Of a stretch of 64,000 nucleotides of DNA, positions 37,150 through 37,821 are shown one piece after another. How positions within the stretch are numbered: position 1 is the stretch's first letter; each line of letters opens with the position of its first letter. The stretch comes from Rhodospirillales bacterium (GTDB taxonomy: Bacteria; Pseudomonadota; Alphaproteobacteria; Rhodospirillales; JASLQF01). The stretch is from positions 487-64,486 of the forward strand of contig JASLQF010000044.1 in NCBI GenBank assembly GCA_030744625.1, in the 5' to 3' direction. The position numbers were made by a program, and so were the translations under genes. The notes under the pieces are model-generated. The model saw only the letters and a list, made by a program, of their open reading frames with translations, was not told the DNA's origin and made no database searches.

Positions 37150-37821
37150 ATGAAGCTCTCCGAATACCTTGCCGATAGGGCAATTACCGCATCCGACCTG
37201 GCCAGGGAGATCAACCGCTCGGTTTCGACGGTGACGCGCATCGTTAACGGCGAAAGCAAACCGGACTGGTCGACCATGGCCCGCATCGACGACGCCACCG
37301 ACGGCGCCGTCAAGCCCAACGATTTCCTACCGGCGGCGGGAGAACCGGCGCCAGAGGCCGAAACCGTGGGTTCCGTGGATGCCGATCTGGTGCGCGAGCT
37401 GGCCCGCCTGCTCGACGAGACCGGCCTCTCCGAGATCGAATACTCGAGGGGCGAATGGCGGGTACGCGTCGCCAAGGCGCCGCCTGCCGCCGCCGCCGTC
37501 CCGGCCTCCGCTCTCGCGGTCCAGGAGCCGGAGGCGGCGCCTACCGAGGCGGCGGCGGACCCGACGGGCGAGGACTTCGCGGGGCATCCCGGCGTCATCA
37601 CGTCGCCCATGGTCGGCGTCGTCTATACCTCGGAAAGCCCCGACACGCCGCCCTTCGTCAAGGTCGGCGACACGGTGACGGAGGGTCAGACCCTGTTGCT
37701 GATCGAGGCCATGAAGGTATTCAACCCGATCGTCGCTCCGCGCCCCGGCAAGGTGGCCCGCATCCTGGTCGGTAGTGGCGTGCCGGTCGAATTCGGCGAA
37801 CCCCTGATCGTCGTCGAATAG
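37150..37821 (+). CDS. accB: Biotin carboxyl carrier protein with N-terminal Cro/XRE-type HTH fusion
   Basis: Residues 1-59 are HTH-like, followed by the usual AccB N-terminus VDADLVRELARLLDETGLSEIEY and biotinyl domain SPMVG..EAMKV. Confidence 0.9.
   Translation: MKLSEYLADRAITASDLAREINRSVSTVTRIVNGESKPDWSTMARIDDATDGAVKPNDFLPAAGEPAPEAETVGSVDADLVRELARLLDETGLSEIEYSRGEWRVRVAKAPPAAAAVPASALAVQEPEAAPTEAAADPTGEDFAGHPGVITSPMVGVVYTSESPDTPPFVKVGDTVTEGQTLLLIEAMKVFNPIVAPRPGKVARILVGSGVPVEFGEPLIVVE

Follow-up and report, generated by a model that had tools for sequence, protein, structure and literature searches.

A biotin carboxyl carrier protein joined to a Cro-like helix-turn-helix domain, with candidate operators upstream of its own gene, in a marine alphaproteobacterial lineage

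Introduction

Transcriptional control of bacterial acetyl-CoA carboxylase genes is largely open, and a 2024 paper states that dedicated regulators of this enzyme "remain elusive" (PMC11602165). The same paper describes AccR, a LysR-type activator of accS in Shewanella oneidensis, and refers to AccB of Escherichia coli, the biotin carboxyl carrier protein (BCCP), as a proposed autoregulator despite having no DNA-binding motif (PMC11602165). Here, a gene is described in which a Cro/XRE-type helix-turn-helix (HTH) domain is joined in frame to a complete AccB at an aroQ-accB-accC locus. It lies in a 64,000-nt stretch of DNA from a Rhodospirillales bacterium (contig JASLQF010000044.1), called the window below, to which all coordinates refer unless another locus is named. 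The source assembly is designated G000 (3.2 Mb, 87.8% complete), and another genome of the same genus, whose fusion protein is 96% identical, is designated G001 (85% complete).

James and Cronan reportedly proposed in 2004 that E. coli AccB autoregulates accBC; excess carrier would shut the operon down. An earlier reading of the window made without database searches (the sequence-only reading) had stated this autoregulation and ascribed it to the N-terminus of AccB; confirmation of this is second-hand, through PMC11602165. No description of an HTH-BCCP fusion was known to that reading, and none was found in the full-text literature, a scope outside which subscription journals and InterPro lay.

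Results

Fusion protein and its predicted fold

The sequence-only reading had proposed that the frame 37150-37821 runs without a stop codon from an HTH domain into a complete AccB, and this was borne out by the open reading frame, by the BCCP family match and by the Pfam families of the neighbouring genes. The start was placed at 37150 and not at an upstream TTG (37114), because every full-length homologue in the alignment begins with MKL. The NCBIfam BCCP equivalog TIGR00531 was matched over residues 81-223 at 118.6 bits (cut-off 115.2), Pfam Biotin_lipoyl was matched over residues 149-221 at 68.7 bits, and residues 78-108 align with the N-termini of plain AccBs. The EAMKV sequence was invariant across the AccB alignment; K189 is presumably the modified lysine, as judged from the known AMK motif of biotinylation, (A/V)MK(M/V). 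Adjacency to accC, the N-terminal domain and the Ala/Pro-rich linker were all found, as expected of an AccB.

The N-terminal part matched Pfam HTH_26 over residues 2-49 at 33.2 bits (cut-off 22), and its matches to HTH_31 (26.1 against 27) and HTH_3 (20.9 against 23) lay slightly under the Pfam cut-offs. An AlphaFold2 model of the full protein, built from a 76-row alignment, had a mean pLDDT of 85.7, with five short helices in residues 3-59 at a pLDDT of 94-98 per 10-residue block and with residues 114-139, in the usual Ala/Pro linker of AccB, modelled as disordered. When modelled alone, the HTH domain gave a five-helix, lambda-repressor-like fold (pLDDT 90.3, pTM 0.74). Its best Foldseek matches were XRE-type HTH proteins and included DdrO, prophage YdaS, SinR, DNA-bound HigA and P22 C2 at a TM-score of 0.70-0.77, with E-values of 0.02-0.1, as expected for a domain of 60 residues. 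The biotinyl domain matched that of E. coli BCCP (1bdo) at a TM-score of 0.91 and 52% identity. Dimer prediction with two copies of residues 1-112 scored 0.01 against a mark of 0.42, a value that speaks neither for nor against binding. A search of a protein atlas returned only plain BCCP clusters, with scores of 0.84, below the counting level. No biotin-ligase family was present among the Pfam and NCBIfam matches of the protein. By homology, the fusion protein is a member of both the BCCP family and the XRE/Cro HTH family and not a relative of BirA.

Reality, conservation and distribution of the fusion

The fusion is real and is neither an assembly nor a frame artefact. The junction is not an assembly error, because the fusion frame is also open in G001 and independent contigs run through it without gaps: contigs of 4 runs from 4 studies covered 37150-37821 with 0 insertions or deletions, three of them being identical to the window over 37237-37462 or 37298-37752 and one 1216-nt contig showing 50 substitutions and 0 gaps. 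No stop or frameshift between the domains, which the sequence-only reading had wished to see excluded by reads, was found in these contigs. In the HTH-coding part, the G+C content at third codon positions was 0.80 in the fusion frame, compared with 0.55 and 0.47-0.48 for the two alternative frames, and the HTH codons of G000 and G001 differed at 6 synonymous and 2 non-synonymous sites. As judged from these substitution and composition patterns, the HTH part is a protein domain under purifying selection that is translated in frame with AccB.

Eleven of the best 120 homologues covered 100% of the query. Eight of these, at 76-96% identity, form together with the fusion protein itself a set of nine proteins (group A), the eight being further clusters at 90% identity; the remaining three carry a different N-terminus (group B). 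When residues 1-72 were used as the query, eight proteins were obtained, all of about 223 residues and all with PF00364. Counting both groups, the fusion is carried by seventeen 90%-identity clusters, one of them in a genome of 54% GC. Within group A, the mean pairwise identity was highest in the HTH domain (93%), followed by the biotinyl domain (88%) and the AccB N-terminal domain (85%), and was lower in the two linkers (Table 1).

Among 60 relatives, a full-length match was present in G000 and G001 only, the others having ordinary AccBs that align from residue 51-77 on. The fused form was likewise restricted to these two among 400 genomes sampled from the order. Weak HTH matches, 29-50% identical, were present in 19 further genomes of the 400; AccB was found at none of ten such loci examined, and the HTH at none of ten plain-accB loci. 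The runs carrying this DNA were labelled seawater or marine metagenome, which places the gene in a marine lineage of Alphaproteobacteria represented by metagenome-assembled genomes (MAGs), and the submitter label on a close homologue was "Rhodospirillales bacterium". A scan of metagenome contigs with the HTH domain gave one weak match (42%, locus L026) and no additional group-A locus.

Candidate operators upstream of the fusion gene

The spacer between aroQ and accB is 119 bp long, in a genome of 66% GC, and contains two tandem palindromes, O1 and O2 (Table 1), whose centres are 22 bp apart. The sequence TTTGC-N7-GCAAA occurred once in the window against 0.08 expected, and this copy, O1, was the only one in the whole 3.2-Mb assembly. 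With the accB promoter region set aside, relaxed forms of the motif were found in the genome at chance frequency (TTGCG-N5-CGCAA, 4 seen against about 3.5 expected from base composition; TTGC-N7-GCAA, 28 against 32). In G001, the arms of O1 differ by a paired change (37064 C>T and 37090 G>A) that leaves their complementarity perfect, and there are three differences in the spacer; the identical arm pair is present in G001-like contigs from other studies.

A motif of the type TTTGCN-N5-NGCAAA was found in 8 of 39 loci compared (136 kb). Four of the eight are accounted for by the accB loci of G000 and G001, and the rest encode the free-standing proteins closest to the HTH domain, four homologues of 46-50% identity from two independent lineages (G211; and G120, G109 and G096, of one genus). 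In G211, a perfect site and a site with one mismatch stand in tandem, 18 bp apart. The motif was absent from all ten plain-accB loci. Because it recurs at the closest free-standing homologues and is absent from the plain-accB loci, the TTTGCN-N5-NGCAAA sites go with this HTH subfamily, and candidate sites of this type stand at the 5' end of the fusion gene itself.

Two further sets of candidates were rejected. A third TTGC-N7-GCAA at 37169-37183 (TTGCCGATAGGGCAA), in the first codons and 77 bp from O2, has lost its left half in G001 and is not claimed, nor are the promoter boxes read by hand, TTGAAA (37114-37119) and TATGAT (37087-37092; TATAAT in G001), which have an inconsistent spacing. A search of Rfam gave nothing meaningful in 36900-37400.

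Origin of the HTH domain

A HMMER search with residues 1-75 against 1.84 billion representatives returned 804 proteins at E <= 0.001. Of the best 150 matches, 137 were free-standing small proteins of 51-122 residues; their common pattern is MKL..YL...T...FA..IG...STV.R...G...PDW.T...I..AT.GAV.PNDF, and many have a C-terminal tail rich in Pro, Ala and Glu that resembles the linker of the fusion. PHROG families of transcriptional repressors matched the HTH domain at E of about 1e-6, and three phage records matched it at 30-42% identity. The homologues in G120 and G211 are divergent from an adjoining CI-type repressor (HTH_3 in G120; HTH_3 and Peptidase_S24 in G211), and such a divergent Cro-like/CI-type pair is, by analogy, the lambdoid immunity arrangement. 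The phage-type, Cro-like character of the domain is supported by this neighbourhood, so that the phage-like ancestry suggested by the sequence-only reading agrees with the family, fold, PHROG, phage-record and gene-neighbour evidence alike.

In the prophage-like immunity region of G211, the tandem TTTGCG-N5-CGCAAA sites (L016:2610-2660) are located 3' of the CI-like gene and not between the cro-like and CI-like genes, a position that recalls OL of lambda.

A second class of fusion and other HTH-enzyme fusions

A genome scan with the group-B N-terminus led to locus L027 in a genome labelled as an uncultured Hyphomicrobiales MAG (G400; 54% GC). Its gene order, thiS/G - aroQ - HTH-accB (229 residues) - accC - aat, is that of the window, and its AccC is 71% identical to the AccC encoded there. 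The first 70 residues of a group-B protein retrieved eight proteins of 220-236 residues, all with PF00364. Sub-threshold matches were obtained for the group-B domain in P0011 and P0121 (HTH_31, 14.3-16.2 bits; HTH_3, 13.9-14.7 bits) and in L027 (HTH_31, 14.6 bits), and Pfam gave no HTH_31 or HTH_3 match in P0100, also of group B. The L027 protein scored 110.4 bits with TIGR00531, just under the cut-off given above.

Between groups A and B, the HTH domains are 24-29% identical and the AccB domains 66-69%. In a tree of 66 HTH rows, the two types formed separate clades (SH-aLRT 98 and 100), and forcing the AccB-fused HTH sets together cost 48.7 log-likelihood units, a marginal rejection (p-AU 0.043). 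In a tree of 61 AccB rows, group A was one clade (99) that was not sister to group B, on a weak backbone. Because the HTH tree separates the two types, the AU test marginally rejects their union and the identity of their HTH domains is low, it may be held with moderate confidence that AccB probably acquired an XRE-type domain twice; a single origin of groups A and B is thought less likely on the same grounds.

Two further fusions were observed in other genomes found among the relatives of G400. A 490-residue protein (L030:1450-2922, G408) consists of a group-B-type domain of about 80 residues (52% identity) and a DegT/DnrJ/EryC1 aminotransferase of DegT/PseC type, whose Pfam domain starts at residue 86; its gene lies beside that of a PseB-like dehydratase and has a weak, 72%-complementary repeat on its 5' side. 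A 479-residue protein (L032:1477-2916, G442) joins a group-B-type domain (40% identity) to CoaBC, with the Flavoprotein domain from residue 81 and dut as the next gene. That a group-B-type HTH module is found on three or more unrelated housekeeping enzymes suggests that such modules fuse to enzymes more widely.

Other carrier and ligase genes

In G001, no AccB-like match other than the fusion was found except for a 1159-aa frame like one on contig C5 of G000, and G400 had no AccB-like match besides its group-B fusion. Because of this, as judged from gene content, the fused gene must serve the carboxylase in these genomes.

In G000, contig C29 (L001:2729-4819) has a second BCCP-like gene; its product of 163 residues scores 126.1 bits with TIGR00531 and is 41% identical to the AccB part of the fusion. 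This gene directly follows, on the 3' side, one for a carboxyltransferase like pyruvate carboxylase B/OadA without a biotinyl domain of its own, no biotin carboxylase gene adjoins it, and its product probably serves that carboxyltransferase. Two other frames on C29, of 686 and 562 residues, resemble hydantoinase A/B by eye.

The BirA of G000 is a 256-residue group I ligase without a DNA-binding domain. According to PMC5640590, alphaproteobacterial biotin genes are regulated by BioR, and a group I BirA is as expected there.

Locus and neighbouring genes

The features of the locus are listed in Table 1. Upstream of aroQ, in both the window (35417-36448, minus strand) and L027 (L027:1430-2404, minus strand), a probable ThiS-ThiG fusion was read by eye from the translation, with a ThiS-like N-terminus of about 65 residues ending in GG and then thiazole synthase. 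The sole strong sigma-70-like promoter within 36400-40400 (TTGACA-18-TATAGT, 11/12; window 39870-40237) stands directly 5' of an ArsR-family HTH gene (39905-40237), which is followed by a membrane-protein-like frame (40203-41291).

Table 1. Coordinates of the features of the HTH-accB locus in the window
Feature	Position	Strand	Remarks
aroQ, type II 3-dehydroquinate dehydratase	36590..37030	+	Upstream neighbour; Pfam DHquinase_II, 192.8 bits
O1, candidate operator	37060..37094		Perfect inverted repeat, 15-nt arms, 5-nt spacer, AT-rich; core TTTGCG-N5-CGCAAA at 37069-37085
O2, candidate operator	37091..37107		ATTGCG-N5-CGCAAA, one mismatch to O1 core; identical in G001
Shine-Dalgarno-like AGGA	37138..37141	+	8 nt 5' of the ATG; read from the sequence; kept in G001
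HTH-AccB fusion gene	37150..37821	+	Uninterrupted open reading frame, 223 residues plus stop
Cro/XRE-type HTH domain, residues 1-60	37150..37329	+	Helices 3-10, 14-21, 25-32, 40-49 and 56-59
Pro/Ala/Glu-rich linker, residues 61-77	37330..37380	+	17 residues; pLDDT 64-70; 65% mean pairwise identity
Internal GTG of the sequence-only reading	37366..37368	+	Not conserved
AccB N-terminal domain, residues 78-108	37381..37473	+	Helix 78-91; strands 95-100 and 103-108 (beta-hairpin); pLDDT blocks 88-95
Ala/Pro-rich flexible AccB linker, residues 109-148	37474..37593	+	pLDDT <50 at 114-139; 56% mean pairwise identity
Biotinyl domain with EAMKV, residues 149-223	37594..37818	+	Pfam Biotin_lipoyl; candidate biotinyl-lysine K189 at 37714-37716
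accC, biotin carboxylase	37843..39186	+	21 nt past the accB stop; Pfam Biotin_carb_N, CPSase_L_D2 and Biotin_carb_C
aat, leucyl/phenylalanyl-tRNA protein transferase	~39180..39869	+	Approximate start; overlaps the end of accC; Pfam Leu_Phe_trans, 235 bits

Discussion

The observations are probably best explained by an AccB with two functions, in which a complete BCCP carries a domesticated Cro-like HTH domain and autoregulates accBC through the candidate operators O1 and O2, probably negatively. The proposal of the sequence-only reading that a domesticated phage regulator controls accBC (and aat) directly is favoured to this extent, that an operator-like target lies in the gene's own promoter region and that the fusion is conserved; the control itself would follow from such features. 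According to the proposed course of events, a Cro-like gene together with an operator-bearing promoter region landed between aroQ and accB; loss of its stop codon then turned its C-terminal tail into the linker to AccB. The domain would thus have arrived with its own operators, the two tandem TTTGCG-N5-CGCAAA palindromes. The fusion protein would bind O1 and O2, presumably as one dimer per palindrome, and their occupancy would control HTH-accB-accC and probably also aat. Cro at its own promoter and, as reported, E. coli AccB both suggest by analogy that repression is more probable than activation; the amount of carrier protein would then act back directly on accBC expression.

Several observations weigh against this explanation, and those of them that also speak for a rival are given with it below. 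A scan for the sigma-70 consensus placed no promoter between aroQ and accB, so that O1 and O2 may overlap or precede the promoter and their position does not decide between repression and activation. No RNA run was listed as containing 36900-38000. Conservation of the operators was seen in two close genomes and in G001-like contigs. Finally, the second BCCP-like gene of G000 means that this genome may not depend on the fused protein alone as its carrier.

A variant of the two-function explanation, rather than its opposite, is that two products are made: an internal start near the old accB start would give a carrier of about 150 residues, and the full-length HTH form would be a minor regulator isoform. 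The sequence-only reading had pointed to an internal GTG at 37366, and this codon is indeed preceded in G000 by GAGG at a distance of 8 nt; however, it is GCG in G001, and Val occurs there in only one of the nine group-A proteins, which argues against a conserved short isoform from this start. A short product is conceivable from Val76 (GTG 37375), which is present in all nine group-A proteins and is also encoded by GTG in G001; yet no Shine-Dalgarno-like sequence is suitably spaced from this codon, the GAGG standing 17 nt upstream, and since the corresponding position is Val or Ile inside plain AccBs, its conservation is of a structural kind. The NCBI record of a 95%-identical homologue, P0010, likewise calls an AccB of 148 residues from Val76 and leaves the 225 nt encoding the conserved HTH unannotated. 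This call indicates that such N-terminal fusions can be missed in annotation, a trap in which a short AccB hides the HTH architecture. In L027 (L027:3199-3216), an in-frame TTG at codon 72 (3214-3216) has a strong Shine-Dalgarno-like GGAAGG 7 nt upstream of it, and the protein sequence beyond this codon is similar to the N-termini of plain AccBs. This is probably a fossil of the point where accB ancestrally began, and it may still be in use; with the GAGG-GTG 37366 of G000 it may be a relic of the old ribosome-binding site of accB. Against the two-product variant, the KEG..L relic is missing from six of eight group-B linkers, and group B has Ile at position 76. Taking both sides together, the production of two such isoforms is considered rather unlikely.

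It is more doubtful still that the HTH domain no longer regulates accBC and is a tolerated remnant of a mobile element or a module for protein interaction, with the palindromes forming a hairpin (an aroQ terminator or an mRNA-stability element) or being leftover phage DNA. O1 could form a stable hairpin, folding of the intergenic RNA gave z = -4.6, and the paired change in the arms of O1 is as compatible with a hairpin, in RNA or DNA, as with a dimer site; however, the O1 stem is AT-rich and is followed by no run of T. Although O2 was listed as terminator-like by a consensus scan, the region has three sites of this kind where 2.4 are expected. The sequence upstream of L027, the sole group-B locus examined, yielded no inverted repeat, and the presence of the group-B-type domain on unrelated enzymes could reflect promiscuous insertion. 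These points are set against the facts that no part of the protein is better conserved than the HTH domain, which ill suits a neutral remnant, that palindromes of the same type, also in tandem, stand beside free-standing homologues in phage-immunity-like regions, and that AccB probably gained its two different HTH domains in separate events.

The idea that annotation or assembly has only apparently joined a small Cro-like gene to accB may be dismissed as contradicted by the sequence data, because, although high-GC genomes have long chance open frames and NCBI annotates nothing but the short AccB for a near-identical protein, the junction is free of stop codons and indels in G000, in G001 and in the contigs of the four studies, seventeen clusters are fused, one of them in a genome of 54% GC, and a separate upstream gene would need a stop codon of its own, which is not present.

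An extension of the preferred two-function explanation is offered tentatively. The carrier may be a sequence-specific transcription factor that reports the state of assembly of the carboxylase, such that protein free of AccC or lacking biotin would sit on O1 and O2 and shut off accBC, and Cro-like genes, operators included, may be plug-in cassettes for autoregulation. Such genes would land before housekeeping genes, lose their stop codon and place the enzyme under feedback from its own abundance, probably twice in the case of AccB and, in related genomes, also in those of CoaBC and a DegT/PseC-type aminotransferase. If the assembly-state reading is true, it would amount to a hard-wired form of E. 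coli AccB autoregulation, which is itself unexplained.

The HTH-AccB protein offers a tractable model for AccB autoregulation, since the protein, its 120-bp target and its partner AccC can all be produced and tested in vitro. The probably independent second fusion argues that coupling the abundance of the carrier to the transcription of accBC is selectively useful. The gene also appears to be an example of a component of a phage switch, a domain with its candidate operators, domesticated into core metabolism; it is of interest for the control of fatty-acid synthesis and would belong with the enzyme-linked autoregulators.

Compared with known systems, the fusion resembles E. coli AccB in that control of accBC is attributed to the carrier protein itself; whereas the E. 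coli protein has, according to PMC11602165, no DNA-binding motif and acts by an unexplained mechanism, the fusion has a Cro-type HTH domain and matching candidate operators. With lambdoid Cro and the small XRE repressors of prophage YdaS type it shares the fold, free-standing relatives beside CI-type repressors and palindromic candidate operators in tandem, but those proteins are free-standing and belong to prophages, whereas here the tail of the HTH domain has become the linker to an enzyme subunit encoded in a core metabolic operon. AccR (PMC11602165) is likewise a transcription factor dedicated to a gene of acetyl-CoA carboxylase, as the fusion would be; AccR stands on its own and activates the gene of a multidomain carboxylase, and in the fusion the regulator domain lies within a carboxylase subunit. 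The group II biotin protein ligase BirA likewise serves metabolism and repression with one polypeptide, and BCCP is part of the BirA switch (PMC5640590 and PMC4016012). In BirA, the DNA-binding domain is on the ligase and the targets are bio genes, whereas here an XRE/Cro HTH domain is on the carrier and the candidate target is the accBC promoter. By its architecture, the fusion is closest to enzyme-repressor fusions such as group II BirA, and it may, by analogy, work like BirA.

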